Below, piece by piece: positions 30,962-64,000 of a DNA stretch of 64,000 nucleotides (position 1 is the first letter of the stretch; every line of letters starts with the position of its first letter). The notes beneath the pieces were generated by a model that saw nothing but the letters and a program-made list of their open reading frames with translations, was not told the origin of the DNA and did no database searches. Both the position numbers and the translations under genes were made by a program. Source of the stretch: Patescibacteria group bacterium (lineage in GTDB: Bacteria; Patescibacteriota; Microgenomatia; CAYGWK01); contig JBMORX010000010.1 in the NCBI GenBank assembly GCA_049322615.1, forward strand, positions 25,416-89,415, in the 5' to 3' direction.

Positions 30962-31105
30962 GCTTTTTAGTTAGGAGTCAGTCCTAAGTTTAATTCATGA
31001 GAAGCCTAAGAAATTTAATAAGTCGTTTAAGACAGTTTTTGCGTGGGAAATAGTTTGGGCTTTTCAAAGCACATTAAGCTGGCTCCGATAAGGAGCCATT
31101 TTGTT

Positions 31106-31244: not shown

Positions 31245-31290
31245 CCCCGTAAATCCGCCTTCGGCGGTAACGGGGTAAACAGAACATTTT

Positions 31291-33116: not shown

Positions 33117-33153
<37 letters not shown>

Positions 33154-35137: not shown

Positions 35138-35174
<37 letters not shown>

Positions 35175-35218
35175 GGACCCGAGAGTCCATATCGACGGTC
35201 CGGTTTGGCACCTCGATA

Positions 35219-36601: not shown

Positions 36602-36974
36602 AGTTTTTGCGCTTAAGCCTTTCGGTCTCCGGAGCGGACTGGAGCCACTCCTTCCCATTCCGAACAGGATAGTGAAACAGTCCAGCGACCCGTAAAATTT
36701 GCGCAATTTAAGATTTCAAAGTATAATAAATATGCTTCGGTGATAAGAGCGCCGTCGAACTACTCCTTTCCATTCCGAACAGGATAGTAAAAGGCGGCAG
36801 CGGGGACGATAGTTAGACCTTGTGTTTAGCGAAAATACCTCATTGCCGAAGCTTTTTTATTGCGCAAATTAACGGGTCAGGGACGTTACGAAGCTTTACG
36901 TCCCGCTGACGATAGTTCCCCGTCTAACGGGGGCGAAAATAGGTCGAGGCCGGAGGACTTGAGCGCAAAAACTT
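36602..36974 (+). other. Outer 5S-like RNA interrupted by an insertion that carries a complete 5S gene
   Basis: Closing stem aagtttttgcgct (36602-14) / agcgcaaaaactt (36962-74). Contains the 5S core ccattccgaacaggatagtgaaac and gacgatagttcccc, split by 36691-36875. Confidence 0.6.
36734..36852 (+). rRNA. rrf: 5S rRNA (inner, uninterrupted copy)
   Basis: 119 nt. Helix I gcttcgg.../...ccgaagc. Core ccattccgaacaggatagtaaaag and gacgatagt. Confidence 0.8.
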
Positions 36975-47530: not shown

Positions 47531-50500
47531 TTATTTAATTGTCATCCCCTCGACCGTAACTCCGCTTATATTCATATCTCCAGTTGCCAGATTAACTGTT
47601 TGGGTCATACACCAATCAGAGCTGCCACCACTAACTTCTGCTCTAACTCGATATTGATAAGTATGACCTGAAGAAACGTTGGTATCAGTATGAGAAGTAC
47701 TGTCAATTGCCTTGTCTATCAAAAAAGTAAATCCTCCACTATCGGTATTCTTTTCAATTCGATAACCTGTCTCAACCGCGGTATTGTCCTGCCATTTAAC
47801 TATCAGCTGACTTGGTTGACCGCTATCATCAATCAAACAACCTGTTGGTGGGTAAAATGAAGCGGTGGTAAAAGAATAAACCGGAGACTGGGTGGTACTC
47901 CAGATATTTGAACCGCCTGGATCAATCGCATAAGAGCGCCAATAATAGGTTGTTAGGGGAGAGAGAGCCGATTGAACAGTATAAGTCGCTTGAGTGCCTG
48001 AAGTGTAAGCAGTTCCTCCTTGGGTATTCTGACCCGACCAGCCAGTTTGAGAAGAGGTTTGGTCAAAGGTTTGGCAATTTTGAGTCATTCCAGAGTCGGT
48101 ACAAACTTGAATTTTATATCTTAGGTAATCGCTTTCGGTATCAGTGGCGGTAGTTTTCAAAGCAGGAGTTAGACTAACATTGGTGGCAGCGTTAGTTGGT
48201 GAATCCAAACTTGGCGTATTCGGACGATTGTTGATCGTGTAGTTAATAGTGACACTGGTAAGTTGGGGAGAAACTTGAGTGTCATTGGTGGAAAGAATGG
48301 CGCGATATTGAATATAACGATTAGCTGTCGAGGAAATAGTTGAGCCTCCCGGCGTCGTGAGATAGTTGGTATTTGAGCGGAAATCATCAAGGTACATGGT
48401 AAAACCTTCGGAAGCATCCAAAATTCGCAACCCTAGCCTAACAATGGCATTCCTGTCGGCAACGGAAACATCACCAATATCCCAATATTCTCTTTGCCAT
48501 TTGAAAACATCGGCATCAGTAGAGTAGCCGCCAGAAGGGGCAGTTCCCGACCAGGAAGAAACGGTGACCAGTCCTGAAGAAATTGAACTTACCTCTCCTT
48601 GCATAATATAGAGAGTGCCATTGTAATTTTCTCGGACAATGACGGTGTCGCCTTTATAAAGCCCGGTGGTTGAATCAGGGGTGAATTGGGTGTCCGAAGT
48701 TGAAGTCGGACCATCGGAACCAGCGGTGGTGACAAAATCAACATTTACCTGATGCGTTCTCAAGCTATATTGATAAGCCAGGCGGATTTCCTCAGGCGTG
48801 CGGGCGGTATTAGAGATGCGGACTTCGTCAATAATTCCTTTATAAAATTGAGTCATACTCCCATTATTATTAGCCGCTCCTATAGAAGCATTTGTGACGA
48901 CGAGGGCATTTCTTGAGGTTGTATCACTACCGATTTGATTGCTATCCAGGTAGAGTTTTCTGTCGCTGGCACTTGATTGAACAAAAGCCACATGATGCCA
49001 TAGACCATCGGAGACACTTTGAGAATAGGTAATAATACTACCGCCTGTTCCGCCACTGTCTCGATACCAAACTCGAATCCCACCATTGGTTGAAGGATTG
49101 TCTCCGTAGTAAATAATAAAGAGGTTATTGGACCAGTTTGCCGGGGTTCCCTCTGAGTATACGACCGGAGCAGTGGTGAAGACGCCTAATTCCGCTTTTG
49201 CCCAAAACTCGACTGTATAAGCAGTGCCTTCGGTGACTCCAATATCAGGGAGTCCAATATAGTCATTTAATCCATTAAAATATCTTCCATTACCAATTTT
49301 TCCTTGGGTAATGGTATGCTCTGGACCAGCATAATTACCTAAAGAGGTTAAAGAGCCATTGCTAATTAAATGGTTAGCGTAGCTTAAGGAGCCGGCATTA
49401 TAAATTACCTTTCTTATTGTTCCCGAACCGTTGGTAATGGCGATAGCATCAAAATATCCAGTTCTCGTTGAAGTGGTATCGTCCTCACAGGCAACATCAA
49501 AATAAGTAATTGTTTTGCCAACGTGACCACTTGGTAAGGCGATTTTTCGGTGGTACCATTTCCCTAGAGCCTTGGCATCGAGATCGGTATTAGGATGGGC
49601 ATTCAAGTTATTTTGATCAACAACACCGGCATCTCGAAGAGTTGCTCCATCAGAGGTGGTGTAATCAAAGGCGATCTTGTCAAGCGAAGCTGTCCAATAA
49701 ATATCGTATTCAAGATAATCTCCTGACTGAATAACATAGTCGGCAACTCCAGTTAAATCAATATAAGCATAGGAGTTTCCCGAGGCAGTCATCGAATAAA
49801 CAGTTCTTAAAGAATTATAGGAAGTGCCGTCATTATTGTTTGCTGAACTGTCGTCAAGATTAGTGGATTGGTCATCTAAATGCCAAAGACCCCTAGTGTT
49901 GGTATCTGTTCCATAAACCGAATGGTCCGTTTCCCCAATATAGGTTTCGGCAATGGTTCCTTGACGGTCAGCAGCAAAATAAAAGGGAACTTTGGTTTTG
50001 CCTGAAAGATCGGTTGAGGAGATGGTTTTTTGTAATCGATGGTCTCTTCCTGCCCGATAGGCTTCGGCAATTTCCTCGGCGGTCATCGCCGTCGCTTTGA
50101 CAAATGGTTCATCGATAATGCCGTCGAAAAACGAGGCAGGGGTGGAGGTCATTGACGCCCCAATTCCAAAAGAACCAGTGTTGTCGAAGATACCTGAAGA
50201 ATAAGAAGTTGTTCCGATTAATGCCCCATCAAGATAAATTTTTAAGGCAGAACCATCATAAACTCCGACTGCCAAATGCCATTGGTAAGTGGGAACGGCC
50301 GAAGTGCCCGAGACGCCGGCGAGGGCTGTTCCGTTTGAGGAGACTAAAAAATCTAGAGAGCCGTCGGCTGAACCCGAACAGGCGCCACAAACATAAAGAT
50401 AGTAACCATATTGTCCAGAATCTCCACCTTTGGTGACAATCGAATGGTCGGCGTCAGTGTTGGCATGGGGGTAAACCCAAGCCCCGACTGTCCAGCCACC

Positions 50501-53386
50501 ACTACCGGTATAGTCGAGTTTGGTTGTTCCTCCGCAATTTCCATCGGTACAAGAAAGATATTGACTTGAACCGGAAAATTCCCTGGCGCTTGAGAAAAAT
50601 CCGCTGTTGGTGACGGTTGCCCCGGTTGGGGTGAGGTCATTATTTAAGGAAGTTTCATCTTGAATATAAGCACTCGACCCTCCTGTTTCTTCTAAGTGCC
50701 AAAGACCTCGGGTATTGGCGTCTGTTTGGGGAGCGCCGACAGTGGATTTTAAGGAACCTGTACCTTCCATTTTAATCGTTGATTCATCGGTTTTGGTAAG
50801 CATCGTTGTACTTGAGGTTGACCAATTAGTGGCATCTGAATCCATTGAGGCAATAGCAGTTTCATTGGTGATTGGTCTCCACTCTTCCCAAGTGGAATTG
50901 TCAGCCGAGGTTCGGGTCTGAAATTCCACATCCGCCCCAACCCCGGCAACAGGTTCGGGAGAGGAGTATTGGTGGACCCTTAAGTCATCAACATAAAAAG
51001 TCGTAGTTCCGCCCCAATAGCCCTGAACCCTTATTTGGGTAATGGTTGTAATTTGTCCCGTAAGAGTTCCTACTTGGTTTCCATCTATAAAAAATGTTAT
51101 CTCACCAGTAGATTTCATCCTAATAGCAAATTTATGCCAGCCAGTGGTTCTAGCAACCGTTGTGGCAGTATAAGTGAAAGCTGTATTGTGATATACATAG
51201 TTAGTAGAAGAGCTATCTGTCCAAACTCCAATCCCAACTGTATTGGTGCCATCATATAACCGAATCACCTTAAAGGCGGTGGTGTCCGAGTCATCATACA
51301 TATCAAAAGTAAGATAAATATTGGGAGTAGTAAATGCCTTATAAGCCGTTATTGAGGTATCCACTGAGTTTGTCTGGACGAGCTTGCCGCTATAGCTACC
51401 TCTTTTTGCCTGCTCGGTTGAAGCTGACCAAGTGCCGGCAGTTGGATTGAGAACAGTCCAATCGCTAACATCCCCATCCTCAAAATTATCCCAAAAAGGG
51501 AAAGTAGCCGAGCCATTACTTCCGGTGCTGGCTCCGGAATTTCCATACCACATAAAGATAGTCGTAAAGGAACTGGCGGTGATTGAGTCCACCTCCACCC
51601 AAACCTTTGCCCAGGCGCCATCGGCTTTATCTTCAATCCAATAATCAAGACTTGTTCCTGAAGAATTAGTAAAGCGCAAATCATCAAAGTCTGTTTGCAT
51701 ATTGGAGTCATAGTCAACGTTGACTTTGACTTGATAATTAGTCAAAGTGTTGGAATTTTGGGTATTATCAATAATCACCGGTTTGTAGTTGCTCCAGCCT
51801 GGAAGTGAAGCGCTTGAAGAAGCAGTATCACTCCAAGATAAAGAATCAAGACTGGTAACTTTTGAAGTGCCGGAGGTTAGGTCAATTGAATCAGAAGTGT
51901 GGATTCCATAAGGAAATCTTTGGGCATCCTGGCGAATTTCCTCAGGGGTGCGGGCGATGTCAGAGATGCGGACTTCGTCAATTACACCATTAAAATAATC
52001 GCCACTATACCAAGACGCTTTACCAATTGTCGGGGCAGTGGTGTCTTGAGACAAGGCAGACGCAGTTCCAGTACCTGTCAAAATTCCATTTATATAGATT
52101 TTTATACTTGAACCATCCCAAGTGCCAGCAAGATGGCTCCATGTTCCGCTTGGAAGGGCAACCGTACTTGTTGCAGATGGGCATGTTGATGGGGTGCAGA
52201 TATTAAAAAATGGAATACCGCTACTTGTTACTTCTAATTTATAACCTATCCAATTCCCGCCATACTTTGAAAAAATAGCACAATTGGTATCGGCCCCTGT
52301 ACAGGTAAAATTAGTTGGTTTTACCCAGGCTTCAACAGTAACCGCTGATGTAGGTTTTAGTGAAGAAGAGTCAGAGAAAGAAATATAATCACTTGAACCG
52401 TTAAAACTCCGGGCATTGCCGAATTTGCCGGTGGTGACATTAGTGCTACTTGCTGATGTGCCGGTGTTTGAGTTTCCAGAGCTATCGGCGACAGTGGTGG
52501 TTCCTGAACTTTCATTCATATGCCATAATCCTACGGTCCGAATATCGGCTGCAAGTTCATGGTAGGGAAGCTCAAGTTTTGGCGAGGAGCCGGAACCAGC
52601 ATCGCTAATTCGATTGAAGGTGCCGGTGGAGAATTCAGAAGAGGTATCGTGGACGACCGAAGGGTCAATAATAACCGGATATTGGCGAGCCGGATGAGAA
52701 AGCCAGTCTGAAGAAGGCGAGATGATAATCTCGTAAGACGTAGAACCAGAAAGACTTGAACGCGAAACAACGCGGAGTTCAACCTCGGTGCTTCTGGCGC
52801 CCGCCGCATCAACCATAAAAGGCTTGGGAATATGGAAGCGATATTGACCATCTTGGGTGTCAATAAAGTAAGTTGAAACTCTGCCATCTAAGGATTTCCT
52901 TGGCACCGCATTCTTTAAATTAAGCGCGAATCTAAATTGCTTAATTGCTAGATTGCTAGATTGCTGATTGCTGAGAATAATTTCTTCCTTAATGCCTTTA
53001 TCGTTAAGCGAATATTTAATATCAATTCCCGGCTGGATATCTTTATAAAGAAGTGAGCTACAGTTCACCTCCGAGGTGGAAGAGGCTCCGCCTTCGGCGG
53101 AGAGACACCTCGGAGGTGGATTTCCAAATTCGGCAGGAGAAAATTCTGCGGACGAGTCTTCTTGTTCAAATTTGACTTTGGGTTTGTTTTCTTGAAGCCT
53201 ATCTCCCAGATATACTGCGAAATCTTTAGATATATTTTGATAGAGATAAGAGGTGGTTGGGGGAGCAGGTGATAATTGGGGGACAGAGGCTTTTTTGGGA
53301 GAAGGCTTAATTACGGAAAAAGCTATAATAATTATAATTATTATAATTGTTATAAATTTTATAATCTTTATAATTTTTTTCTTCAT
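47531..53386 (-). CDS. 1,951-aa surface protein with LamG-like, DUF2341-like and Fn3-like modules
   Basis: N-terminal TM. Repeated ...F.G.IDEVRIS..ARTPEEIR (LamG/laminin-G_3 C-terminal signature). LDYWIED...AKVWVEV...IFMWYGN (DUF2341-like). C-terminal Fn3-like repeats. Confidence 0.7.
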   Translation of the reverse strand: MKKKIIKIIKFITIIIIIIIIAFSVIKPSPKKASVPQLSPAPPTTSYLYQNISKDFAVYLGDRLQENKPKVKFEQEDSSAEFSPAEFGNPPPRCLSAEGGASSTSEVNCSSLLYKDIQPGIDIKYSLNDKGIKEEIILSNQQSSNLAIKQFRFALNLKNAVPRKSLDGRVSTYFIDTQDGQYRFHIPKPFMVDAAGARSTEVELRVVSRSSLSGSTSYEIIISPSSDWLSHPARQYPVIIDPSVVHDTSSEFSTGTFNRISDAGSGSSPKLELPYHELAADIRTVGLWHMNESSGTTTVADSSGNSNTGTSASSTNVTTGKFGNARSFNGSSDYISFSDSSSLKPTSAVTVEAWVKPTNFTCTGADTNCAIFSKYGGNWIGYKLEVTSSGIPFFNICTPSTCPSATSTVALPSGTWSHLAGTWDGSSIKIYINGILTGTGTASALSQDTTAPTIGKASWYSGDYFNGVIDEVRISDIARTPEEIRQDAQRFPYGIHTSDSIDLTSGTSKVTSLDSLSWSDTASSSASLPGWSNYKPVIIDNTQNSNTLTNYQVKVNVDYDSNMQTDFDDLRFTNSSGTSLDYWIEDKADGAWAKVWVEVDSITASSFTTIFMWYGNSGASTGSNGSATFPFWDNFEDGDVSDWTVLNPTAGTWSASTEQAKRGSYSGKLVQTNSVDTSITAYKAFTTPNIYLTFDMYDDSDTTAFKVIRLYDGTNTVGIGVWTDSSSTNYVYHNTAFTYTATTVARTTGWHKFAIRMKSTGEITFFIDGNQVGTLTGQITTITQIRVQGYWGGTTTFYVDDLRVHQYSSPEPVAGVGADVEFQTRTSADNSTWEEWRPITNETAIASMDSDATNWSTSSTTMLTKTDESTIKMEGTGSLKSTVGAPQTDANTRGLWHLEETGGSSAYIQDETSLNNDLTPTGATVTNSGFFSSAREFSGSSQYLSCTDGNCGGTTKLDYTGSGGWTVGAWVYPHANTDADHSIVTKGGDSGQYGYYLYVCGACSGSADGSLDFLVSSNGTALAGVSGTSAVPTYQWHLAVGVYDGSALKIYLDGALIGTTSYSSGIFDNTGSFGIGASMTSTPASFFDGIIDEPFVKATAMTAEEIAEAYRAGRDHRLQKTISSTDLSGKTKVPFYFAADRQGTIAETYIGETDHSVYGTDTNTRGLWHLDDQSTNLDDSSANNNDGTSYNSLRTVYSMTASGNSYAYIDLTGVADYVIQSGDYLEYDIYWTASLDKIAFDYTTSDGATLRDAGVVDQNNLNAHPNTDLDAKALGKWYHRKIALPSGHVGKTITYFDVACEDDTTSTRTGYFDAIAITNGSGTIRKVIYNAGSLSYANHLISNGSLTSLGNYAGPEHTITQGKIGNGRYFNGLNDYIGLPDIGVTEGTAYTVEFWAKAELGVFTTAPVVYSEGTPANWSNNLFIIYYGDNPSTNGGIRVWYRDSGGTGGSIITYSQSVSDGLWHHVAFVQSSASDRKLYLDSNQIGSDTTSRNALVVTNASIGAANNNGSMTQFYKGIIDEVRISNTARTPEEIRLAYQYSLRTHQVNVDFVTTAGSDGPTSTSDTQFTPDSTTGLYKGDTVIVRENYNGTLYIMQGEVSSISSGLVTVSSWSGTAPSGGYSTDADVFKWQREYWDIGDVSVADRNAIVRLGLRILDASEGFTMYLDDFRSNTNYLTTPGGSTISSTANRYIQYRAILSTNDTQVSPQLTSVTINYTINNRPNTPSLDSPTNAATNVSLTPALKTTATDTESDYLRYKIQVCTDSGMTQNCQTFDQTSSQTGWSGQNTQGGTAYTSGTQATYTVQSALSPLTTYYWRSYAIDPGGSNIWSTTQSPVYSFTTASFYPPTGCLIDDSGQPSQLIVKWQDNTAVETGYRIEKNTDSGGFTFLIDKAIDSTSHTDTNVSSGHTYQYRVRAEVSGGSSDWCMTQTVNLATGDMNISGVTVEGMTIK

Positions 53387-53946
53387 CTTGATTTTCCTTT
53401 CTTAAACTCTAGTCTTTTTCTAAACAGGTTTTCTCTAAATCCGCCCTCTTTGATAAATCTTTCCTCGGTCCAGCGGAGTTTTTGGTCTAACAGAGAGTTG
53501 GTTTGGTTGATAAGACAGATTAGGGTGTTGGCGGCCGTCTCGGGAGATTTCTGAATATAAATTTTATAATCTTTATAACTTTTATAATTTTTATAGGCGA
53601 TTCTTCGAATCGCCAGGGATCGAGGATCGTCTTTCAGCCAAAGAGTAAGTCCTCTTTGTCTTAAAAAATCTAAGAAGTCGTTTAGAAGTTCTTCGTAGGA
53701 GCCCCGAGAAACTCCTAGCATCTTTAATCTCCCTTCAACGCTTTTTTGGAGGTAGCCCTCGGCAATGCACTGTTTGCCGGATCTTGCGGCTTGAGTCATT
53801 TGCTCTTTTTGGCGAAGAGAGCGGATATAGCGGTCGCAAAACTCAACCGTTCCATCGTAAACAATCTCCGCCTGTTGGAAGAAGGGAAGGGTTTTATAAC
53901 CGCTAGGTTTCAAACTCTGCTTATAACCTTTATAATTTTTATCCAT
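53383..53946 (-). CDS. Four-helix-bundle suffix-domain protein
   Basis: QAARSGKQCIAEGY...SRGSYEELLNDFLDFLRQRGL..W matches my memory of the four-helix-bundle suffix family. ATGA overlap with the LamG gene. Confidence 0.6.
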   Translation of the reverse strand: MDKNYKGYKQSLKPSGYKTLPFFQQAEIVYDGTVEFCDRYIRSLRQKEQMTQAARSGKQCIAEGYLQKSVEGRLKMLGVSRGSYEELLNDFLDFLRQRGLTLWLKDDPRSLAIRRIAYKNYKSYKDYKIYIQKSPETAANTLICLINQTNSLLDQKLRWTEERFIKEGGFRENLFRKRLEFKKGKSR

Positions 53947-53947: not shown

Positions 53948-56900
53948 TTAATTTATTATCCACCAGTTAAACCTTATCTCTTGGTCAATTGGGGTATCAA
54001 TTCCAACCTTAAACCATTCGCCAGATTTCTTGGCCGAAACGTACAAGACCTTATTTTGAGTATCTGAAACTGGAGTAAGATAAACTAAAGTATTTTCGCT
54101 GACTTTTGGATTAAAAATTGTAAATTCAGTTGAGCCCGCAGGTAAAATTCCCAACCCCGAGGTGGCGTTAGTTCGGATTTCTGCCAGGCTTGCCGATTGG
54201 GTAGCCGAGTAATCGGCGGCAATGACCAGAGAGGCAAATTGGGCTGAACCCGAAGCATCGATTGAGGCGACGGTCTCCCCAAGCGGGTTTTGAATCGCCA
54301 AGAGCTTGCCAAAAGCAGATTCTTCTGGGGAGGTCGAACCTCCGGAGAGGTTCGACCTCTTAAGGACTAAACCAGAAGCCGAGATCTCACCGCCGACTGC
54401 CAGATTGCCGGCGACCTGAACATTGCCATCGGTATCAATCGTCATCTTTCCTGCCAGAATATCAACTGGTCCCCAACCAGAGGACTGAAGACGGAGGACA
54501 GAAGACGGAAGAGAGTTGATACCCGTGCTGTCGATAACAACTGCTCCATCAACCATTAATTGTCCAGCCACAGTCGTGTCAGCCAAAGAGGTTCGGCCTA
54601 AAACCTTTAAGTTTGCGGTGATTTTCAGGTCAGAAGAAGGATCGGTGATTGGCCAAGATTGAGTCTCAGCTAAAAGACTGCTTGCAGTTGCGGTTTCGTT
54701 GGCATATGATAGAGTTGGCGTGGGGTTGGCAGGTTGGCTGGATGGGCTTGTCAAGCCACGTCCATCGGGTTCAACTCCCGACAGCTCCACGCCCTCTTGA
54801 GATTGGGACTTGACAGGCGTGTTATTATCTGTTATATTATTGTCAAGCTTGACAGGCCCATCTATTAGCGAACTTGCTGGACTTACCAGAGCCGCTTCAT
54901 TTGAGGCGGTTTTTTGGTTCTCGAGATTTTCTAACCTTGCCAATAATTCTCCAAAGCTGCCCCTTAAGGCGCTTATTTCTTTAGTTTCTATCTTGTCCGC
55001 GTAGAGGGTGCCGGAAACCGTCGCATCTTGGGTTACTTGTAACGTCTCACTTGTCACCTGTCCGGCGAAGCTTGCTGAGCCGGAAGAATCTATACTCGCC
55101 ACCGTTTCTCCTTGCTCATTCTGAACCAGAAGCTTGCCGAAGCCAGATCCTTCGGAGGTCGAACCTCCTTGGAGGTTCGACCTCTTAAGGGAAATCACGA
55201 TTTCCGAAGAGTCTGGTAATGGTGAAATAATTCCAGTCTCAACCACCGGCGAGATAATCTTCTTCTCGGCGATTAATCTTTGTCCAAAAATCGTTCCTGC
55301 TTCGTCAATTGAGGCAATGGTTTTACCAAGAGAGTCTTTAATCTCAAGAACTTTTTCAGCTACATCAACTGCCTTCTTGGTGTTAATAACTACCTTATTT
55401 AAAGTGGCTACTCCCAATTCGTCAATTAACCAATTGCCGTCCGTTGATTTAATAGTCTTAGTCACTATTTCCTGGGCTTGTATTTGTTCCTCTGGTGGTG
55501 AGTCTTGGTTCCAAGAGAGATTGGCAAAGGCGGTAACTTCTCCTAGGGCATTGATGTCTCCATTGGTTTCAAAGGGAGAAAGGGCGATTCCGATAGTTCT
55601 TACTTTACCGGTCGCCTTCATTGCCCGACCCGGGACAGGTGAGGCCGTCAAGAAATCGCCTCTTTTGATCGAGCCGCCAATTCCAGAAACCTTAACTGGA
55701 ACACGACCCGCAAGAGCAAGAGGATATTTAAATTTAGCTTCGGGCATATCGCCGTCAAGAGTTATAGCGGGCGCAGTCGAAATAATACCCAAAACATCCC
55801 CTTGATTAGCCTTTGTAGTCCTTACCAGGTTTTCGTTGTTATTTGGGTCAACAGCAACTAGTTCTCCCGGTTCAAGGGGCATACTAGCGGGAAACATTTC
55901 TGCTAAATCAAAACCGTTAGATAGACGACAACATTGAGCATACCAACCCGGATTACAAGTTCCGGGGCAGGAGCCTCCCCCTGAAACAGAGGTACATTTA
56001 TAAGTGGTGGAAATATTACTACAAGCAGTATTCCCGGTTATACCATTGCAATCTGCGGAAGTTGTACATTCAATATTTAACGCCGTACCACTTTTTCTTA
56101 TTTGACCAGTAAAGTTAATATCTCCGGAAACATCTAATTTATAGGAGGGCCCCGTCGTCCCGATGCCGACGTTGCCGTTCATATAAATCTTACCTTCACT
56201 ATCTACAATTTCCCCATAACCCGCATGCTTATACATCTGAATGTATGCACCAGCAGTACCTTCGTACAATCTTAATTTCGCTTCGCTACCACTTGTAGAT
56301 GTTCCAGCAACAATGTCCCCTGCAACTGCCAATTTAAAATTTGAACCAAGATTATTCCAGATATTAGAACCAACTTGTGTGAGATACGCTGGACTCGTCG
56401 TCCCGATGCCGACATTGCTACCATCCAGAGTCATTACATTCGCAACACCGAGATTAGTGAAAGTCAATTTACTACTTAAATTTTCGATTCTCCAGGTTTT
56501 TCCTGCGGTAGAGTTTGTAAGGTCCAGTTGGACATCGCCAGCACGTTCAATATCTAAAGCAACTGTTGGACTTGTCGTCCCGATTCCGATATTGCCAGCG
56601 TTGGTAATTCTTAGCCTTTCTGTTGCTCCGGCGTCGCCTCCAACCGAGGTATAAAAAGCCAAATCGCCAGCGTTTAAGGTATAAATCTTGGAAAGTCCGG
56701 AAGTGGGGAGAAGAGTAAGATTGGGGGTGCCGGAAATTGAGGCAATTCCACCCATCGTTAAATTGCCAACATTAATTAAGTTGTCACTTGCAAGAGAAAT
56801 ATTATTTGAGGCAGCGTTAATGGTAATATCTCCTGAACTATTGCTAATTAAAGATTGGGCGCCGCCAACAGTCAAACTTCCACTTTGGGTGGAGGAACCG

Positions 56901-59900
56901 CCGGCATCCAAAGACCATTTAGAAACACCATTATTTTGAATATCAAAGAGTTTCCTGCCAGTAGAGAGAGTATTTGCGGTATTGAAAAGATAAGCAGTAT
57001 TTGAGCCGGTATCAGCCACCGTTGAAAGCAAGGTTAATTGTCCGCTTGCGCCAATGGTAAAAGAGGTATAATTTGAGGCATTGTAGGCAAGCCTTAATTG
57101 CTCGGTTGTCTTTAAGACCTCCAAAAGAGCGTTCGGTGAAGTCGTCCCGATGCCGACGTTGCCGGCGACTAAAAGGGAATTGGTGGAAGCGGCTGGGTCT
57201 AAGAAATAGGCAGTATTGGCGGTATCCACAAACCGAGCGGCATTAACATAGTTTGAAGAATCAATCGTCACTCCGCCGGAATTAAAAGAAGCGGTTCCGG
57301 TGGTAGTAATATTGCCGGCATTAGAAATTGTAAATCTGGGGGTGCCAGAGGAGGAGGCGGTAAAGATGTCATTTACTGTTCCGGTTTCATTTAGGATGGT
57401 CAAAGCCTTGCCGGTGGTAGTGCCATCAACATGAAGTTTGGTTAAAGGAGAGGTGGTGCCAATGCCGACGTTGCCAGAAATATACGTGTTGTGTGCCAAA
57501 ATCCCGTTACCGACAAAGTTATGAGTCCCCTCAACCTCTATGTCATAAACTTGTTCTTCTCCTACATACTTAATGGATTGGATTTTGTCCCACACCACAT
57601 ATGGTTCGGAGTTCGAAGAGCGAAGATCGGAGAAAGAAACGGTAGCGATAGAATCGCCAGGCTGGAGATAGATTACTTTTGACCAGAGGAGGTTTTGAGA
57701 TAATTGATGAGGCTGGTAATCATTTTGCGAATCTGATGGGTTTGTCCCAACAGAGGCTTGATTTGCTGTTCCGTCAGATAGCCTAATTCCACTGCCAGTC
57801 TGAGACAGGCTACTACCTCGAAGAGGCTGCCTCTGGCTTGATAGAGAAACTGGATAAACTCTGTCTTGTGATACCTGCCCGACCCCTCGGCTAGGTTGAG
57901 GAGAATCGAGACCACCGCTCTCCTTAACTGATCCGCCAGACCATACTGTTCGTGTTTGGGAAAATTCGTAATCAGTTGATAAACTGCCTTGACTAAGATC
58001 ATAGTCTTTTTCCAAACCTCCAGTTTCTCGAAGTTGAACTCTTCGTTGGTATTCATCATAAGTTAATTGTACCAGATAGGGATGGTTACCAGTAGTTCTA
58101 ATTTCTTTGCCGCTTTCAGTCTTGAGCTTAAAGACTGGTTTAATCCCCATGTCCAAAAGTTTGTTAATCTTCGCTGGTTGAACTTTACCTGTCTGCTCAT
58201 TCCTTGAGTAAACCAGTGTTCCTGGTTGAACATCTTTAATCTGAACTTCGCTCTTCGAACTTCGATCTTCAGAAACTTCACCTTGTTTATCTAGGTCTTG
58301 AGTAACAATAGAGAGGAGGGTATCACCGGTAACGCACTGACCTTCAACGTGAAGTTTCTGAACAGGCCCCGTCGTCCCGATGCCGACGTTGCCGCTTACA
58401 TATAAAATATTGTTCCCTGCCCCTGGACTTCCACCTACTCCAAACCCCCCGCTGGTATAGAATTGCCCCCACCCAGTCGAGTAAATAATACCCGCTTGAG
58501 TATTATCTGTACGAGTGCTTTCAATAAGAGCAGTATCTGAATCAGCCGCAAAATTCAATGCAGCATTATTAAACCCAGCGCCGATGATAACATTACCTCC
58601 ACTAACATGTAACTTCGCCCCCGGTCCCGTCGTCCCGATGCCGACGTTGCCGGAGGCTAATAACATCGTGTCACTGCTACGTCCACTCTCTCGAAATCCC
58701 AAACCGGCACTTGAGGTAATTCTTGCGTTATTGCTGTCAAAAGTCAGAATATTTCCATAGTTTAAGGTTTCAACACCTTGGGTAGTAACTGTCCAACGAT
58801 TAGCCGTCCCATCTGACAAAATCAGTGAGGGATTTGACGAAGAAGAATCCTGAACAACAAATCTCGCCCCCGGCCCCGTCGTCCCGATGCCGACGTTGCC
58901 GGCGTTAGTGATGGTCATTCTTGGAGTTAGTCCCGCATCTCCACCAACCGAGGTCTGGAAATCAAGCCTTGAGCCATTTAAGACATCAATCGTTCCTGGC
59001 GAGGTTCCTCGTAAAACCAAACTCCCTGAAGCCGAGGCATCTCCGACAATATCAAGCGAATCATCAGTCTTAAGCCAATTGGCGGCCGAGCGGTAAAGAT
59101 TAGTGTCAGTTCCAAAAGTAATTCCCGAGGCAGCGTCGCCATCAGTTGAGGCAAGTTGTAAAGAGTAAGTATCGGCATCAGCAATATAAAGACCAATATC
59201 AGTTGAGCCGCCAGCAGTTTGATTGCCAATGTAGATACCATAATTGTTGGAAAGGGTTCCGCCACCACTATTTATGGCATCACCAACATAAAAGCCGTAG
59301 GCGTTAGTTATTGTTCCGGTTGAGAGATTGGACCGACTGGTATAAAACGAATAGGCATTGTTAACTGTTCCATTAGAGGTGTTTTCTATCGAAGCATAAT
59401 TGCCGGCTGCTTGGGTAACAGTTCCCGAGCCGGCATGGATCGCCTTGGCGTTGGTTCCCCACAGGGCACCGATATTTTGCGCTCCCATTCCGTAAGCCTG
59501 TGCCTGGTGTCCATAGAAGTTGGCGGTTGAGGCGGAGGCTGGGTTGGCGACAGCTTCGGTGTAGAGAGCGGTTACCTCTCCACTGGTGTTTGTAAAAACT
59601 TCTCTAGACATTGTGGTTTTAGTTGTGTCAAAGAAACCGCCGGAGCCGAGGGCAACGTTGCTAGCAGCGAAAAATTGATCATCTGTTCCCAATCTGTTTG
59701 CCGCCGAGCGGTAAAGGTTGGTGTCAGGAGCCCCTGAACCTGAACCCCATCGAAGATAACCAGCACTTGCTCCGGTACCAATGACTTGAAAGTAGGCAGA
59801 ATTGGTGGCAGTTCCTCCAATTAAAAGATCATCAGTAATATTAGTGGGGGATAAAGCCCCGGCGTTTCTCTGCCAATATCCGGAGGTTCCTGTTCCCGGA

Positions 59901-62900
59901 GCGTAGATATTATTAACATAAAGATTATTCCAATATAAAGCAGAGGAGCCCAGATTGTAAGTAGAGGTAGCTGAAGGAAGAAGATTAGCCGTTAAGGAAA
60001 CATCTCCTCCTGAAGGAGCGATGGTTAAATCGCCCCCTGAAGAAACAGTAAAGGTTGTCTGATTTGAACCATCATATTCTAATTCTAGTTGAGTCGCTGT
60101 GCCACGCACCGACAGCTTGCTGTCTGGTGCTGTGGTCCCGATGCCGACGTTGCCGCCAGATTTTAAGTACACCTGATTTGCCGTTGTATCTGTCCCTAAA
60201 GCCACATCAGATCCGCTTGCAGTATTTCGTATTCTTGCAACTCCAGGACTTCCAGGATTTTCTATGGTAATGTCCCCATTGTAGATGTGAAGTTTAGTAC
60301 TTGGTCCCGTCGTCCCGATGCCGACATTGCCTACCGTATTTACCGTCAAAGCCGGTGTCCAAGAGTTAACTCCGGATTTGTAGTCAAGAGTAAGTATGCC
60401 ATTAGTTCTTGGTCTGACTGCTCCTCCCGAAGCAAGATACAGATTACTGGAAACAGAAGCATCGCCGGAGACATCAAGTGTAGCTAAAGGAGAGGTGGTC
60501 CCAATCCCAATCTGACTGCCAGTTTCGTAGATTATCGAATCAGTTAAAGATGAAGAAGTACTCCATTTCGGAATGTAATTTTGCGTTCCTGAACCCGAAA
60601 CCCCACTTGCTCCTGAAGCAACTGCCTTCCAAGAAGAACCATCACAATAGTAGTATTCATCTTGGGCATTGTCATAGTACATTTTCCCTTCAGAGGAAGC
60701 ATTACAAGTTCCGGCATATGCCTGAACTTGCGGACCAAGGGAAAGAGTACCGGAAATAGTCGCATCCTCGGCCAAAGTTAAATCATTGAGAATATAGGTA
60801 TTATGAGCGACAATCCCATTAGCGACAAAATTATGGGTTCCCTCAACCTCAATATCATAGACCTGCTCATGACCTACATACTCAATTGAGGCAATTTTTG
60901 CCCACTTGACTCGGCTGCCAATTCCTTCACCATCCGAGGAGTCCTTCGGCCACCTCGGAGGTGTTCCCTTGGCAGCCTCGTCCGAAGTGTCAGCAACGGC
61001 AATTTCCATTCCCGGCTTAAGGTAAATTACCTTAGTCCATTGTCCATTGACAGGAGAATGATTATCTGTTAGATTGTTTTTAATGGTTTTTGATTTAAAG
61101 CTAGCCAAATTGCTTTCTGATTTTTTCTTAGACATTGCCAAGGCATTTTTTATTGCAACTTTTGTAACACCATCCTTAACAGGAGTCTCTTCAACCCCTG
61201 AACTATTTTTAATATTGACAAAGGGATTAGGTAATGTTACGATGTTTTTAGTCCTTTCCTGGTATTTAGCTAAATTGGAGGAAAGATTATGAATCAAATC
61301 AACTGGCTTGATGTTTTCAACTCGGCGACTACCTTTGGTGTTTTGACTGTTATTGCCGTTGCCTTGTTGTTCTTGCTTTTCCGAAGAGATTTCGGCTCCA
61401 AATCCACCAAGCGATGAGAGTTTAACCAGATACGGATGGTTTCCGGTTGTTCTTATCTGTCTTCCGTCTTCAGTCGTCAGTCTATAGACTGGTTTGACCC
61501 CCATATCCAACAATCCCTTGATTTTCGCCGGCTCGATTTTACCAGTTTTTTCGTTTAAGGAAAGAACATATTCTCCACCTTTAATGTCCTTGATCTGGAC
61601 GAAGGAGATATTAGGTGATTTTTCTTTTTTGTTTTCGCTCTTAGTATCATAGTCTCTTAGTATCTTAGTATCTTCTGTTGCCACGATTGGTAAAAGACTG
61701 TCTCCTGTAACACATTGTCCTTCTACATGGAGCTTTTGGGTAGGACTCGTCGTCCCGATGCCGACGTTGCCGCTACTTCTTTGAATAAACATTCTCGGTG
61801 TCCCTGGATACGCCGCCGATTCATCAGAGATTTGAAAATCCCCATTGGTCGTTGTCATCTGCATACCCCATGAATATGAACCTCTCTGTATCAAGGCTAT
61901 TGCAGGCATGTAAGCCGTACTGCTAACCTCTGCCAAAATTTGACCCTCTGTAGTGGAATCCTTTTTTACATTGAGTGCCCAGCTTGGCCCCGTCGTCCCG
62001 ATGCCGACGTTGCCATCATTTCGGACATAAAGTAGGGAAGTCCCCGAGGAATTGTAAACCTGAAGTCCGGCTTTAGTTGAGTCGGCGGTTGAACCTTGGA
62101 TATAAGTATTGTGAGCCACAATCCCGTTAGCGACAAAGTTAGCCGTATTGGCAATTTGAAGATCATAGACATGCCTTGTACCGGTTTTTTTAATAGAAAC
62201 AATTTTCTCCCAGCCTAGGGTAGGAGACTTGACATCGCCACTTTCATTTATGCTAGAATGGGAATCGGTGAGGAAATTATCTTCAGACCAGCGGAGAGCA
62301 TTTACAGAATTTTGGGCTAATTTTGCCGTTGTTTGGTTAGCCGCAGGGGTTGTCCCCTCATTTGTGACCGGTAAAATTAGTGTTGAAGAAGTTAAATCAG
62401 TGGTCGCCTCTCTCGTTTGGGGTGGAGTTTCTTTATTGTTTATGCTATATTTTAGTAGAGGAGGCAAGAAATGAATTTCTGGCCGGCTTATGCCCTCGCC
62501 TCGGCGATGACGGCGGCGATTATTGTTTTCATTTATTTTCTTGTTAGAAAAGGATAAATTATGTCTGATACCACGGCCACGGTTGTCATCTTGTTGTCCA
62601 TGGTTATTGCTGTCTTTGTTCTCTGGCGTCTTTCCCGCGAGCGTTGAGGAGACCCCTTTAGTCAAGACGGCGATTTCCTGATTTTTATTAAGATAGACGA
62701 CCTTTTCCCAACCTTCTTTAGTTAAGTACGGATGATTTCCGGTGGTTTCGATTCTTTTTCCTGATTCGGTTTTTAGTTCATAGACTTCCTGAATACCTTT
62801 ATCCAGAGTTTTTTCCACTTTCTGCCATTCAAATTTGCCAGTTTGTTCGTTTAAAGAAAGGACTTGGTCGCCAGGTTTTATATCTTTAATCTTCTCTCTT

Positions 62901-64000
62901 CGCCCTTCTCTCTTCTCACTTCTCTCTTCGCCCTTCTCTCTTCTCACTTCTATTAAGGAATTCTCTTCCACACATTCGCCGATGACCTTAAGTTTATTTG
63001 TTCCCGGGTCGGTCGTTCCAATTCCGACATTCCCTAAATTATTAACCGTCAAGGCCGGTGTCCAGGAGTCGACTCCGGATTTATAGGAAAGAGAAAGACT
63101 ACCGCTGGTCCTTGGTCTGACTTCTCCTCCGGCGGCAAGATATAAGTTCCCGGAAACCGAAGCATCTCCAGAAACATCAAGTTTAGCCAGGGGAGAAGTT
63201 GTTCCAATTCCAATCTGGGAACCAGTCTCATAAATAATAGAGTCAGTCAAAGTCGAGGAAGTAGACCACTTGGGAATATAATTTTGTGTTCCCGAACCCG
63301 AGACGCCACTTGTTCCTGAAGCCACTGCTTTCCAAGAAGAACCATCACAGTAGTAGTATTCATTATTAGCATTGTCATAGTACATCTTTCCTTCAGAAGA
63401 AGCGTTACAAGTCCCAGCGTAAGCCTGAACCTGGGGTCCTAAAGCCAAAGTCCCAGAGATAGTGGCATTACCGGCAATATCGAGTTTCTGCGATGGAGAA
63501 GTTGTCCCGATGCCGACGTTGCCGCTATCAATGACCATTCTCGTGCCACCTTGATAGAAACTGAGTTTTCCTCCAGTATCAATATTTTTGCCAATTATCC
63601 ATTTGGTAGAATCTGCATCACCTGTAGCAAAGAAGCCGATTGAAGCTTCTGCATTGGCAGTTGAAGCAATTGCCTGAATTTGGCCATAACTAGTTGTACC
63701 GTACACTGACAGTTTTGCGCTTGGTCCCGTCGTCCCGATGCCGACGTTGCCATTCGTTATCGTCATTGTCTCTGTTCCACCGGCTACTAGACCTAATTTA
63801 TCTGCCGCAGTGCTGTAAAGACCGGTATTTGTATCACCTGTAAATGTTAAAGATGGCGTTGCCGCCGCCCCTGCTGGTAAGAGAGCATATCCAGAAGAAT
63901 TCACTCCAAACAGATCACCAGAACCAACGGTGAGGAGATAGGCAGGTGAAGCATCCCCGATGCCGACGTTGCCGGTTGTATCTATGACTACTTTGCCCCT
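53948..64000 (-). CDS. Giant repeat protein (>3,350 aa, 5' end outside the window) with GNVGIGTT.P repeats and three inteins
   Basis: ORF 53948..63904 stays open to the window edge (upstream codons read RGKVVIDTTGNVGIGDASPAYLL...). At least 20 GNVGIGTT(S/G/A/D)P..KL.V.G repeats of tail-fibre-like type. Cys-rich module and DLAEMFP motif near the C-terminal third. Confidence 0.85.
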   Translation of the reverse strand, partial: RGKVVIDTTGNVGIGDASPAYLLTVGSGDLFGVNSSGYALLPAGAAATPSLTFTGDTNTGLYSTAADKLGLVAGGTETMTITNGNVGIGTTGPSAKLSVYGTTSYGQIQAIASTANAEASIGFFATGDADSTKWIIGKNIDTGGKLSFYQGGTRMVIDSGNVGIGTTSPSQKLDIAGNATISGTLALGPQVQAYAGTCNASSEGKMYYDNANNEYYYCDGSSWKAVASGTSGVSGSGTQNYIPKWSTSSTLTDSIIYETGSQIGIGTTSPLAKLDVSGDASVSGNLYLAAGGEVRPRTSGSLSLSYKSGVDSWTPALTVNNLGNVGIGTTDPGTNKLKVIGECVEENSLIEVRREKGEERSEKREGRREKIKDIKPGDQVLSLNEQTGKFEWQKVEKTLDKGIQEVYELKTESGKRIETTGNHPYLTKEGWEKVVYLNKNQEIAVLTKGVSSTLAGKTPENKDSNNHGQQDDNRGRGIRHNLSFSNKKINENNNRRRHRRGEGISRPEIHFLPPLLKYSINNKETPPQTREATTDLTSSTLILPVTNEGTTPAANQTTAKLAQNSVNALRWSEDNFLTDSHSSINESGDVKSPTLGWEKIVSIKKTGTRHVYDLQIANTANFVANGIVAHNTYIQGSTADSTKAGLQVYNSSGTSLLYVRNDGNVGIGTTGPSWALNVKKDSTTEGQILAEVSSTAYMPAIALIQRGSYSWGMQMTTTNGDFQISDESAAYPGTPRMFIQRSSGNVGIGTTSPTQKLHVEGQCVTGDSLLPIVATEDTKILRDYDTKSENKKEKSPNISFVQIKDIKGGEYVLSLNEKTGKIEPAKIKGLLDMGVKPVYRLTTEDGRQIRTTGNHPYLVKLSSLGGFGAEISSEKQEQQGNGNNSQNTKGSRRVENIKPVDLIHNLSSNLAKYQERTKNIVTLPNPFVNIKNSSGVEETPVKDGVTKVAIKNALAMSKKKSESNLASFKSKTIKNNLTDNHSPVNGQWTKVIYLKPGMEIAVADTSDEAAKGTPPRWPKDSSDGEGIGSRVKWAKIASIEYVGHEQVYDIEVEGTHNFVANGIVAHNTYILNDLTLAEDATISGTLSLGPQVQAYAGTCNASSEGKMYYDNAQDEYYYCDGSSWKAVASGASGVSGSGTQNYIPKWSTSSSLTDSIIYETGSQIGIGTTSPLATLDVSGDASVSSNLYLASGGAVRPRTNGILTLDYKSGVNSWTPALTVNTVGNVGIGTTGPSTKLHIYNGDITIENPGSPGVARIRNTASGSDVALGTDTTANQVYLKSGGNVGIGTTAPDSKLSVRGTATQLELEYDGSNQTTFTVSSGGDLTIAPSGGDVSLTANLLPSATSTYNLGSSALYWNNLYVNNIYAPGTGTSGYWQRNAGALSPTNITDDLLIGGTATNSAYFQVIGTGASAGYLRWGSGSGAPDTNLYRSAANRLGTDDQFFAASNVALGSGGFFDTTKTTMSREVFTNTSGEVTALYTEAVANPASASTANFYGHQAQAYGMGAQNIGALWGTNAKAIHAGSGTVTQAAGNYASIENTSNGTVNNAYSFYTSRSNLSTGTITNAYGFYVGDAINSGGGTLSNNYGIYIGNQTAGGSTDIGLYIADADTYSLQLASTDGDAASGITFGTDTNLYRSAANWLKTDDSLDIVGDASASGSLVLRGTSPGTIDVLNGSRLDFQTSVGGDAGLTPRMTITNAGNVGIGTTGPGARFVVQDSSSSNPSLILSDGTANRWTVTTQGVETLNYGNILTFDSNNARITSSAGLGFRESGRSSDTMLLASGNVGIGTTGPGAKLHVSGGNVIIGAGFNNAALNFAADSDTALIESTRTDNTQAGIIYSTGWGQFYTSGGFGVGGSPGAGNNILYVSGNVGIGTTGPVQKLHVEGQCVTGDTLLSIVTQDLDKQGEVSEDRSSKSEVQIKDVQPGTLVYSRNEQTGKVQPAKINKLLDMGIKPVFKLKTESGKEIRTTGNHPYLVQLTYDEYQRRVQLRETGGLEKDYDLSQGSLSTDYEFSQTRTVWSGGSVKESGGLDSPQPSRGVGQVSQDRVYPVSLSSQRQPLRGSSLSQTGSGIRLSDGTANQASVGTNPSDSQNDYQPHQLSQNLLWSKVIYLQPGDSIATVSFSDLRSSNSEPYVVWDKIQSIKYVGEEQVYDIEVEGTHNFVGNGILAHNTYISGNVGIGTTSPLTKLHVDGTTTGKALTILNETGTVNDIFTASSSGTPRFTISNAGNITTTGTASFNSGGVTIDSSNYVNAARFVDTANTAYFLDPAASTNSLLVAGNVGIGTTSPNALLEVLKTTEQLRLAYNASNYTSFTIGASGQLTLLSTVADTGSNTAYLFNTANTLSTGRKLFDIQNNGVSKWSLDAGGSSTQSGSLTVGGAQSLISNSSGDITINAASNNISLASDNLINVGNLTMGGIASISGTPNLTLLPTSGLSKIYTLNAGDLAFYTSVGGDAGATERLRITNAGNIGIGTTSPTVALDIERAGDVQLDLTNSTAGKTWRIENLSSKLTFTNLGVANVMTLDGSNVGIGTTSPAYLTQVGSNIWNNLGSNFKLAVAGDIVAGTSTSGSEAKLRLYEGTAGAYIQMYKHAGYGEIVDSEGKIYMNGNVGIGTTGPSYKLDVSGDINFTGQIRKSGTALNIECTTSADCNGITGNTACSNISTTYKCTSVSGGGSCPGTCNPGWYAQCCRLSNGFDLAEMFPASMPLEPGELVAVDPNNNENLVRTTKANQGDVLGIISTAPAITLDGDMPEAKFKYPLALAGRVPVKVSGIGGSIKRGDFLTASPVPGRAMKATGKVRTIGIALSPFETNGDINALGEVTAFANLSWNQDSPPEEQIQAQEIVTKTIKSTDGNWLIDELGVATLNKVVINTKKAVDVAEKVLEIKDSLGKTIASIDEAGTIFGQRLIAEKKIISPVVETGIISPLPDSSEIVISLKRSNLQGGSTSEGSGFGKLLVQNEQGETVASIDSSGSASFAGQVTSETLQVTQDATVSGTLYADKIETKEISALRGSFGELLARLENLENQKTASNEAALVSPASSLIDGPVKLDNNITDNNTPVKSQSQEGVELSGVEPDGRGLTSPSSQPANPTPTLSYANETATASSLLAETQSWPITDPSSDLKITANLKVLGRTSLADTTVAGQLMVDGAVVIDSTGINSLPSSVLRLQSSGWGPVDILAGKMTIDTDGNVQVAGNLAVGGEISASGLVLKRSNLSGGSTSPEESAFGKLLAIQNPLGETVASIDASGSAQFASLVIAADYSATQSASLAEIRTNATSGLGILPAGSTEFTIFNPKVSENTLVYLTPVSDTQNKVLYVSAKKSGEWFKVGIDTPIDQEIRFNWWIIN
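57488..58336 (-). other. Mini-intein 3 (residues 1857-2139)
   Basis: GQ|CVTGDTLLSIV, TTGNHPYLV, VYDIEVEGTHNFVGNGILAHN|T. Confidence 0.8.
57673..58059 (-). CDS. Four-helix-bundle protein (23S rRNA intervening-sequence protein family) nested in intein 3 in a different frame
   Basis: FEKLEVWKKTMILVKAVYQLITNFPKHEQYGLADQLRRAVVSILLNLAEGSGRYHKTEFIQFLYQARGSLFEV matches the four-helix-bundle (S23p-like) family pattern. Same strand as the giant ORF, frame offset 1. Confidence 0.75.
   Translation of the reverse strand: MMNTNEEFNFEKLEVWKKTMILVKAVYQLITNFPKHEQYGLADQLRRAVVSILLNLAEGSGRYHKTEFIQFLYQARGSLFEVVACLRLAVELGYLTEQQIKPLLGQTHQIRKMITSLINYLKTSSGQK
60800..61714 (-). other. Mini-intein 2 (residues 731-1035)
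   Basis: GQ|CVTGDSLLPIV, TTGNHPYLV, VYDIEVEGTHNFVANGIVAHN|T. Confidence 0.8.
62108..62974 (-). other. Mini-intein 1 (residues 311-599 of the listed ORF)
   Basis: C1 in GE|CVEENSLIEV, block B TTGNHPYL, blocks F/G VYDLQIANTANFVANGIVAHN|T. Confidence 0.8.

Follow-up and report, generated by a model that had tools for sequence, protein, structure and literature searches.

Small genes have been found before in segments that are removed from the products of their host genes. In the fractured genes described in 2009 a split intein encloses a free-standing gene that has control elements of its own (PMC2677866), and open reading frames (ORFs) of the four-helix-bundle (4HB) family 23S_rRNA_IVP occur in the rRNA insertions of bacteria of the candidate phyla radiation (CPR) (PMC11270868). 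Among the bacterial intein-like (BIL) domains, those of the A type are described as cutting their flanks without ligating them (review, PMC7765530). In the literature, of which our coverage was limited and incomplete, we found no description of inteins in the surface proteins of Patescibacteria or CPR bacteria and none of a continuous intein ORF that encloses genes in another frame or on the antisense strand; a similarly limited coverage gave nothing relevant on 4HB genes inside ORFs. In this paper we analyse a stretch of 64,000 nucleotides from a Patescibacteria group bacterium (GenBank assembly GCA_049322615.1, contig JBMORX010000010.1, positions 25,416 to 89,415 of the forward strand), hereafter the window, in which one giant gene on the minus strand contains three inteins. 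Our reading, to which we give a probability of roughly 0.78, is that this gene encodes the precursor of a CPR fibre protein with three class-1 inteins of the DnaB type, the loops of which shelter genes that are out of frame with, or antisense to, the host gene.

Three inteins in a giant repeat protein

The host gene (53948..63904, minus strand, from the ORF list and its translation) encodes a giant repeat protein of 3318 amino acids. The bacterium is of the CPR (Patescibacteria) type, and the gene product is a surface protein that resembles a tail fibre; its exteins match the PHROG tail-fibre families phrog_9942 (E=1e-18) and phrog_18345. The motif list holds 14 exact copies of GN[VI]GIGTT in this protein, 3 of them occupied by an intein and 11 empty. 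Intein 1 covers residues 311-599 (289 amino acids; 62108..62974), intein 2 residues 731-1035 (305 amino acids; 60800..61714) and intein 3 residues 1857-2139 (283 amino acids; 57488..58336), all on the minus strand. The whole protein matches the Pfam model Intein_splicing (PF14890) in three stretches with E=1.1e-59, and each segment matches it singly, at E=3.5e-23, 2.5e-22 and 1.1e-20 for inteins 1, 2 and 3, respectively. The cut-offs of the NCBIfam models intein_Nterm (TIGR01445) and intein_Cterm (TIGR01443) are passed by all three. Together these matches go far past anything that chance would produce.

The three inteins share their junctions and their motifs. Cys1 follows ...KL(K/H)V(I/E)G(E/Q) at one and the same point of the repeated GNVGIGTT motif; block B reads TTGNHPYL in each, and is nearly invariant in 23 relatives; and the block-F Asp, VYD(I/L)...NFV.NGI.AHN, the penultimate His, the terminal Asn and Thr+1 are present throughout, so that every intein ends in NGI(V/L)AHN and is followed by Thr. 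Intein 1, for example, has C1, TTGNHPYL and VYDL...ANFVANGIVAHN|T. Its insert lies at the canonical endonuclease site, past the 'GWEKVVYLNKNQEIAV' block, that is, after the GWEKVVYL...EIAV block, and the inserts of inteins 2 and 3 lie in the hairpin that joins block B to the 'W.KVIYL' block. Pfam and NCBIfam searches of the host-frame inteins found no LAGLIDADG, HNH, GIY-YIG or other endonuclease domain, and tblastn together with a six-frame reading of the inserts gave only 4HB and transmembrane (TM) ORFs and no endonuclease.

An earlier note on this DNA, which a model had made from the letters and their ORFs, had proposed three inteins at these same residues, with Cys1, TTGNHPYL and AHN|T, at a common insertion point in the motif GNVGIGTT..KL.V.G(E/Q), many copies of which would be empty. 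It had also called the host protein tail-fibre-like and had seen no endonuclease motif in the linkers. All of this is confirmed by the motif counts and by the Pfam, NCBIfam and PHROG matches given above, the intein-splicing profile matching each segment with E-values from 1e-20 to 3.5e-23. An alignment bears out the identity further, as the canonical class-1 residues are kept in the three copies, with the block-F His replaced in intein 1.

Comparison of fold leads to the same family. With the insert deleted, the core of intein 3 (157 amino acids) matches the Npu DnaB mini-intein 4o1r with E=5e-22 and the Ssp DnaB mini-intein with E=5e-16. We built an AlphaFold2 model of intein 3 on a 23-sequence alignment, and in this model the HINT core (approximately residues 1-10, 31-100 and 220-283) has pLDDT>90 and residues 110-199 of the insert have pLDDT<50. 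When the model was compared with the PDB by Foldseek, ranks 1-16 were all inteins, the first being 4o1r with a target TM-score of 0.83, and the first BIL2 domain stood at rank 27. By every criterion of sequence and of modelled fold the three segments are class-1 inteins, closest to the DnaB mini-inteins, and we read the invariant +1 nucleophile as pointing to ligation and not to mere cleavage.

The alternative named in the earlier note is that these are BIL-like HINT autoprocessing domains, which would cut the surface protein at the motif, or make it variable, and would not splice it. The context is alike, in that the hosts of BIL domains are secreted or surface proteins that are variable and not conserved (review, PMC7765530); the segments match the PT-HINT and Hint models weakly, and no intein-less allele with identical flanks was found in the metagenome collection. 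However, the intein models outscore Hint and PT-HINT by far, the nearest sequences and folds are the DnaB mini-inteins, with BIL2 only at Foldseek rank 27, and Thr occupies position +1 in every one of the 56 family junctions retrieved from the protein database, whereas by the published account A-type BIL domains cannot ligate their flanks (PMC7765530). The invariant Thr+1 and the best matches speak against a BIL domain of either the A or the B type, and the alternative as a whole seems to us improbable.

An empty counterpart of one occupied site is present in the same gene. Residues ~128-310 and ~712-1200 of the giant protein are internal duplicates, and within them the empty paralogous site KLDIAGN|ATISGTLALGPQ... 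(residues 140-152; 63449..63487, minus strand; from the translation and the motif list) corresponds to the intein 2 site KLHVEGQ[intein]TYILNDLTLAEDATISGTLSLGPQ... Because the duplicate reads KLDIAGN|ATISGTLALGPQ where the occupied site reads KLHVEGQ[intein]TYILNDLTLAEDATISGTLSLGPQ, HVEGQ and TYI(+) accompany the intein. The giant ORF also has a long extein duplication (residues ~150-300 and ~1050-1200; nucleotides ~63005-63455 and ~60305-60755), which reads …LGPQVQAYAGTCNASSEGKMYYDNA..EYYYCDGSSWKAVASG…GSQIGIGTTSPLA.LDVSGDASVS…; one copy comes after intein 2 and the other before intein 1.

Reading frames within the inserts

The whole insert of intein 3 (nucleotides 57689-58069) is taken up by a nested 4HB gene (57673..58059, minus strand), which encodes 128 amino acids in the +1 frame relative to the host and is of the 23S rRNA intervening sequence (IVS) protein/Avd-like kind. 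Its TAA stop is made from the W-S-K-V-I codons of the intein. The nested protein matches PF05635 with E=3.9e-38 (130.3 bits against a cut-off of 33.8) over profile positions 1-105 of 106, TIGR02436 with E=1.3e-36 (125.1 bits against a cut-off of 24), and the PHROG family 'Avd protein of DGR' (diversity-generating retroelement) with E=4.6e-18. A weak TGgTACAAT element lies 6 nt upstream of the gene, and no inverted repeats were found around this window copy, though they are present at other cassettes. In a tblastn search of the window the nested protein found itself only; inserts 1 and 2 were considered as decayed 4HB genes, and this was rejected because tblastn gave no 4HB remnant in them.

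In three CPR contigs (L001, L002 and L007) a 4HB gene is likewise nested in an intein at the +1 offset, with ~51-58% protein identity to that of the window, and the 4HB profile gives E-values of about 1e-37 in all four loci. When the four loci are compared, amino-acid identity is 51-68% in the nested frame and 28-39% in the host frame, the latter being no better than that of an unused frame. Mismatch rates are ~0.3, ~0.3 and ~0.55 at nested codon positions 1, 2 and 3, and host position 3 varies least. Across the nested gene the host frame has 0 stops in every locus, as against a mean of 7.6 in the equivalent frame of 80 4HB genes taken from other genomes. Because identity and codon-position mismatches follow the nested frame and the host frame is free of stops, the substitution patterns show selection acting on the nested 4HB frame, with the host frame merely kept open.

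A further ORF of 187 amino acids (53383..53946, minus strand) lies between the giant gene and a second giant surface-protein gene. It matches TIGR04258, 'four helix bundle suffix domain', with E=1.5e-16, and TIGR02436 and PF05635 weakly; it starts 2 nt downstream of where the giant gene stops, and at its other end its stop codon runs into the beginning of the following gene. As it adjoins the giant gene, it places a second member of the 4HB superfamily beside the intein-bearing gene.

The insert of intein 2 holds a candidate two-gene module on the opposite, plus strand. Gene 1 (61083..61292) encodes ~69 amino acids with two TM segments and begins at the ATG at 61083, the mechanical ORF start being the TTG at 61074. 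Gene 2 (61289..61417, plus strand), which is assigned by synteny with locus L091, encodes 42 amino acids with a single TM segment and a basic tail. The two genes overlap by a 4-nt ATGA, and GGAGGA, a Shine-Dalgarno sequence, stands ahead of the ATG of gene 2. A promoter-like TTGACA-17-TGtTAGATT (61047..61075, plus strand), which is a consensus match only (10/12 with TG), is the best promoter-like match within 57300-63000; it ends 7 nt before the ATG at 61083, and this position fits a leaderless-type transcript of the antisense module. The insert of intein 1 (nucleotides 62222-62662) has an antisense ORF of 81 amino acids, also with two TM segments (62229..62474, plus strand), which aligns with the antisense ORFs of L004-L006 and is a diverged and possibly decaying member of the same family of small membrane proteins; no convincing second gene was seen in this insert. 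The antisense two-TM ORFs of inserts 1 and 2 lie in one phase to the host frame, and so do those of the homologous inserts L004-L006.

A two-TM profile made from these five ORFs (inteins 1 and 2 and L004-L006) was searched in 5.8 billion sequences and returned 52 small proteins of 54-118 amino acids (most 59-69; one of 44), with E-values down to 1e-20. The two homologues that were looked up are free-standing genes, one between dinB-like and epimerase genes (L090) and one adjoining dnaA (L091). We then scored a family hidden Markov model (HMM), built from the 52 homologues, on the 703 six-frame ORFs of the window; gene 1 of intein 2 ranked first (E=2.9e-19) and the ORF of intein 1 second (E=0.0023). 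Gene 2 of intein 2 is 57% identical (E=2.5e-18) to a 43-amino-acid ORF that follows the L091 homologue, likewise with an ATGA overlap. The bias of the module toward A at codon position 1 and its Ser-codon bias are only suggestive.

Alternative-frame and antisense ORFs can also be by-products of composition, for example hydrophobic ORFs opposite linkers rich in K, E and N. This explanation would suit the failure of BLASTP to find similarity between the two antisense ORFs of the window, the lack of any family for them in Pfam, NCBIfam or PHROGs, and the tendency toward openness of an antisense frame in which third positions face each other. It has to contend, however, with 52 independently called small proteins, including free-standing genes in contigs of 114 kb and 252 kb, with a two-gene synteny in which the ATGA overlap is conserved, and, for the 4HB gene, with E-values of ~1e-37 in four loci and a decisive codon-position pattern. 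For intein 2 the profile search and the family HMM overturned the artefact explanation, and for the nested ORFs in general we hold it to be very improbable.

At locus L003 (3484-3843) an ORF of 120 amino acids lies antisense to the intein of P0025. It matches CCDC90-like/DUF1640 weakly (E=3.5e-4), has a TM helix at its C terminus, and is perhaps nested cargo of a third type.

The intein family and its cargo in other genomes

The inteins of the window have 76 matches in the protein database, nearly all of them partial proteins from Patescibacteria. Gln stands at position -1 in 20 of 24 family junctions, and a GNVGIGTT-type motif stands upstream in 19 of 24; some relatives have two inteins, and in P0005 these are just 23 residues apart. 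The DNA pattern of KLHVEGQ|CVTGD was found in 89 metagenome stretches. In the records of phages there were no tail-fibre inteins like these, the nearest match being a cyanophage DnaB intein.

The earlier note had taken the three copies to imply spread between repeats of one gene, and as a recent event this finds no support. The three cores are mutually 54-67% identical in protein and 58-69% in DNA, and the motif copies of the giant gene are only 42-80% identical in DNA. The N-terminal core of intein 2 is 91% identical to a Kuenenbacteria fragment (P0016) as against 65% to intein 3, and the closest relatives of intein 3 are P0002, P0004, P0007 and P0013 at 71-73%. Recent intragenic duplication was rejected on the identities of cores and motif copies, and recent spread within the gene is not supported because the cores are so far apart and have closer relatives in other CPR genomes. 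By these comparisons the three inteins are old and divergent, each resembling inteins of other genomes more than it resembles the two beside it, and belong to an old, diversified lineage that is specialised on the GNVGIGTT motif of many CPR surface proteins.

The same note had also spoken of linkers that replace the endonuclease domain, and this too needs revision. The corresponding explanation is that of plain mini-inteins with meaningless degenerate linkers, recently multiplied between the repeats of the giant gene. A single insertion point with identical junction residues in all three inteins and the absence of an endonuclease domain would be expected of such copies, and P0005 shows that local duplication is possible. 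But the inserts encode bona fide genes in other frames, namely the 4HB gene in intein 3 and the antisense module in intein 2, with what appears to be a diverged copy in intein 1; the cores are only 54-67% identical and each is nearer to inteins of other genomes; and the insert of intein 1 is at a different position from those of inteins 2 and 3. We find this explanation hardly credible.

Cargo was surveyed in 68 metagenome inteins that have the KLHVEGQ|CVTGD junction and sufficient downstream sequence. A 4HB gene is present in 6 of the 68, 5 times at the +1 offset with an open host frame, and an antisense TM gene in 15, of which 11 share the phase seen in the window, again with the host frame open. 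The 4HB genes lie after strand β1 in L112, L119, L140 and L156 and after block B in L152, and these different loops indicate independent insertions. Other inteins carry, where a classical homing endonuclease might be looked for, domains in frame with the host: NYN after block B in L093 (E=2e-19) and, by eye, in L097, L121 and L167; DUF3800 after block B in L145 (E=7.5e-7); and unknown in-frame domains, also after block B, in L117/L131 and L122/L161. The in-frame NYN and DUF3800 domains may be a new kind of intein-associated nuclease. Two relatives are split (L088:1-4973 and L089:1-6266), with a gene that ends in IntN, then 3-3.5 kb of genes, then a gene that starts with IntC. The cargo between the halves includes NYN (L088), a PemK toxin and unknown genes. 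The IntC-starting gene, which has a W.KVSDL block and blocks F and G, is fused to a surface-protein extein, and at least 17 protein clusters begin in this way.

In the 80 background 4HB genes, the frame equivalent to the host frame has 0 stops in 11, 1 stop in none and 2-17 stops in 69. All 11 zero-stop genes lie inside long ORFs of at least 569 amino acids (L008, L009, L011, L012, L013, L015, L028, L050, L052, L053 and L061), and they come from non-CPR genomes of unrelated phyla. Pfam, run on five of the 11 enclosing ORFs, identified three as DNA methyltransferases, by N6_N4_Mtase for L008 and L011 and as an Eco57I/MmeI type for L028, and gave no match for L015 and L050; the remaining ones are methyltransferase-like by eye. 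In a Fibrobacter metagenome-assembled genome two paralogous methylase genes share a near-identical cassette of ~460 nt (100% over ~400 nt), the flanks of which have roughly 40-75% identity. Inverted repeats of 36-46 nt flank the 4HB cassettes L119:6553-7034, L112:416-927 and L011:1432-1883, with a complementarity of 89-93% in L119 and L112 and of 73% in L011. The arms in L119 consist of tandem copies of a 7-nt unit, (AAGGTGG)n / (CCACCTT)n, and the host frame translates inverted-repeat arms as KVEGGRW... and PSTFDLR... repeats. This stem-ORF-stem layout is reminiscent of the rRNA intervening sequences.

The state of the host frame bears on one more explanation, that the inteins or the whole giant gene are dead relics and that the nested genes landed in decaying DNA. 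Intein 1, with its non-canonical block F and its weakly matching nested ORF, would be at home in such a relic, and the host frames of the related loci L001, L128, L134 and L149 are indeed broken. At L001 (594-4417, the P0002 contig) the frame breaks inside block F, with three overlapping gene calls on the same strand and the nested 4HB gene intact; either this copy is pseudogenised or the assembly contains a frameshift. Against decay in the window, the frame of 3318 codons is open across ~400 codons of insert and the catalytic residues are all retained in three divergent copies. Moreover, 9 intein loci are stop-free through the 4HB gene, as against 2-17 stops in 4HB genes outside long ORFs, and therefore continuing selection for read-through is required. 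That the inteins or the gene are relics seems distinctly improbable.

Proposed mechanism and comparison with known systems

We propose that the giant gene is translated as a precursor straight through the inserts, which would form disordered loops of low complexity and ~130-150 residues. Each HINT core would fold around its loop and excise itself by way of a C1 thioester, trans-esterification to Thr+1 and cyclisation of Asn; ...KL(H/K)V(E/I)G(Q/E) would thereby be joined to TYI... and a continuous fibre restored. The discarded loops would become shelters for small genes outside the host frame, the contents being the 4HB gene (+1) in intein 3, the antisense two-gene membrane-peptide module in intein 2 and a diverged copy of its first gene in intein 1. 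Cargo would accumulate there because the loop is removed from the mature protein and needs only a stop-free frame and a foldable HINT core, a rationale that also covers the homing endonucleases of inteins and the 4HB ORFs of rRNA intervening sequences, and the sole constraint on the host frame through the nested genes would be to have no stop codon. The antisense module would be expressed from its own promoter as a leaderless-type transcript, and the nested 4HB gene by internal initiation or from the weak TGgTACAAT element. In the family at large the loops carry varied cargo: NYN or DUF3800 domains in frame with the host, 4HB genes in another frame, TM modules on the opposite strand, or islands of several genes by which the intein is split. 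The layout of the gene, its homologies, the relations between the frames, the pattern of selection and the distribution of the family are observed, and the splicing of the inteins, the expression of the nested genes and the movement of cassette and intein are what we infer from sequence.

Several observations weigh against this reading. In intein 1 the block-F His is replaced (NTANF versus GTHNF), and the antisense ORF of the same intein matches its family only marginally (E=0.0023). In the antisense module the wobble positions of both strands coincide, so that substitution patterns cannot tell which strand is selected, and in the free-standing copies the antisense frame has only 0-1 stops, so that openness is weak evidence for the module. 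Upstream of the nested 4HB genes no conserved promoter or ribosome-binding site was found. Finally, as to the occupied and empty sites that the earlier note had proposed to survey, there are 89 occupied metagenome junctions and an empty paralogous site in the gene itself, but a search of the metagenome collection for KLHVEGQTYI, the uninterrupted form of the junction, gave 0 matches.

A wider proposal, which we advance tentatively and at somewhat less than even odds, is that the inteins of CPR surface proteins serve as landing pads for unrecognised mini-cassettes, the 4HB IVS ORF, at times with inverted repeats at its ends, and the promoter-bearing two-gene membrane-peptide module, which settle in discarded or tolerated segments, such as inteins, rRNA intervening sequences and DNA methyltransferase linkers, in a fixed frame other than that of the host, the host frame being cleared of stops. 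The cassette, not a homing endonuclease, may then stabilise or spread the inteins; no nuclease is present in the intein copies of the window. Cross-splicing in a multi-intein fibre with identical junctions could generate protein isoforms.

If our reading is true, inteins extend beyond the classical niche of replication, repair and ATPase proteins to a repeated structural motif of CPR surface proteins. An intein could then hold cargo that is not fused to it, which would amount to natural, long-lived dual coding and give a new view of the 'linkers' of mini-inteins. The 4HB genes in rRNA intervening sequences, inteins and methyltransferase linkers would be linked by one logic, insertion where the segment is tolerated or removable, and such a common logic would make the mobility and function of the 4HB family testable. 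Gene callers skip nested genes, which would thus be missed systematically.

Elsewhere in the window, the rRNA operon (22676..36851) is rich in selfish elements. Its 16S gene extends over 2376 nt (model 1533 nt), with a group I intron at 23474-23703, and the 23S gene spans 3811 nt (model 2925 nt); LAGLIDADG ORFs stand beside the rRNA genes at 25522-25974, 26301-26807 and 35322-35993, and a partial second 5S match (36634-36686) lies ahead of the full 5S gene (36736-36851). The neighbouring surface protein of 1951 amino acids (47531..53386, minus strand) has four Laminin_G_3 domains, DUF2341 and fn3, in an operon-like array, and a Pfam scan found no intein in it.

With the DnaB mini-inteins (Npu, 4o1r; Ssp, 1mi8) the inteins of the window have in common the HINT core and blocks A, B, F and G (C1, TxxH, D...HNF and HN). 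They differ in that the host is a repetitive, non-essential-looking CPR surface protein and not a replication enzyme, that the +1 residue is Thr, and that the inserts are large, hold genes in other frames and in part occupy a non-canonical loop, the one from block B to the W.KV strand. Inteins with a homing endonuclease also carry a second genetic element in a loop that is spliced out of the host protein. In the window, however, the cargo is no endonuclease and forms no in-frame fusion; it is a separate gene, read either in the +1 frame or from the other strand, and the host frame crosses it as a stop-free spacer.

The BIL domains are likewise of the HINT fold, occur in variable secreted or surface proteins and are sometimes several to a protein, whereas the inteins of the window have canonical intein motifs, an invariant +1 nucleophile and true inteins as their nearest relatives. 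The rRNA intervening sequences offer a likeness of another kind, since there too a PF05635 protein is encoded in a segment that is absent from the mature host product, and IVS-like stems are present at L119, L112 and L011. In the window a protein-coding frame, which has to remain open, acts as host, removal is presumably by protein splicing, and the copy has no inverted repeat. The relatives L088 and L089, which are split by 3-3.5 kb of cargo, resemble the fractured genes. In the window, by contrast, the host ORF is continuous through all three inteins and the nested genes overlap it; the cargo consists of 4HB and membrane-peptide genes and not of a Vsr-like endonuclease, and the hosts are surface proteins and not enzymes of DNA metabolism.

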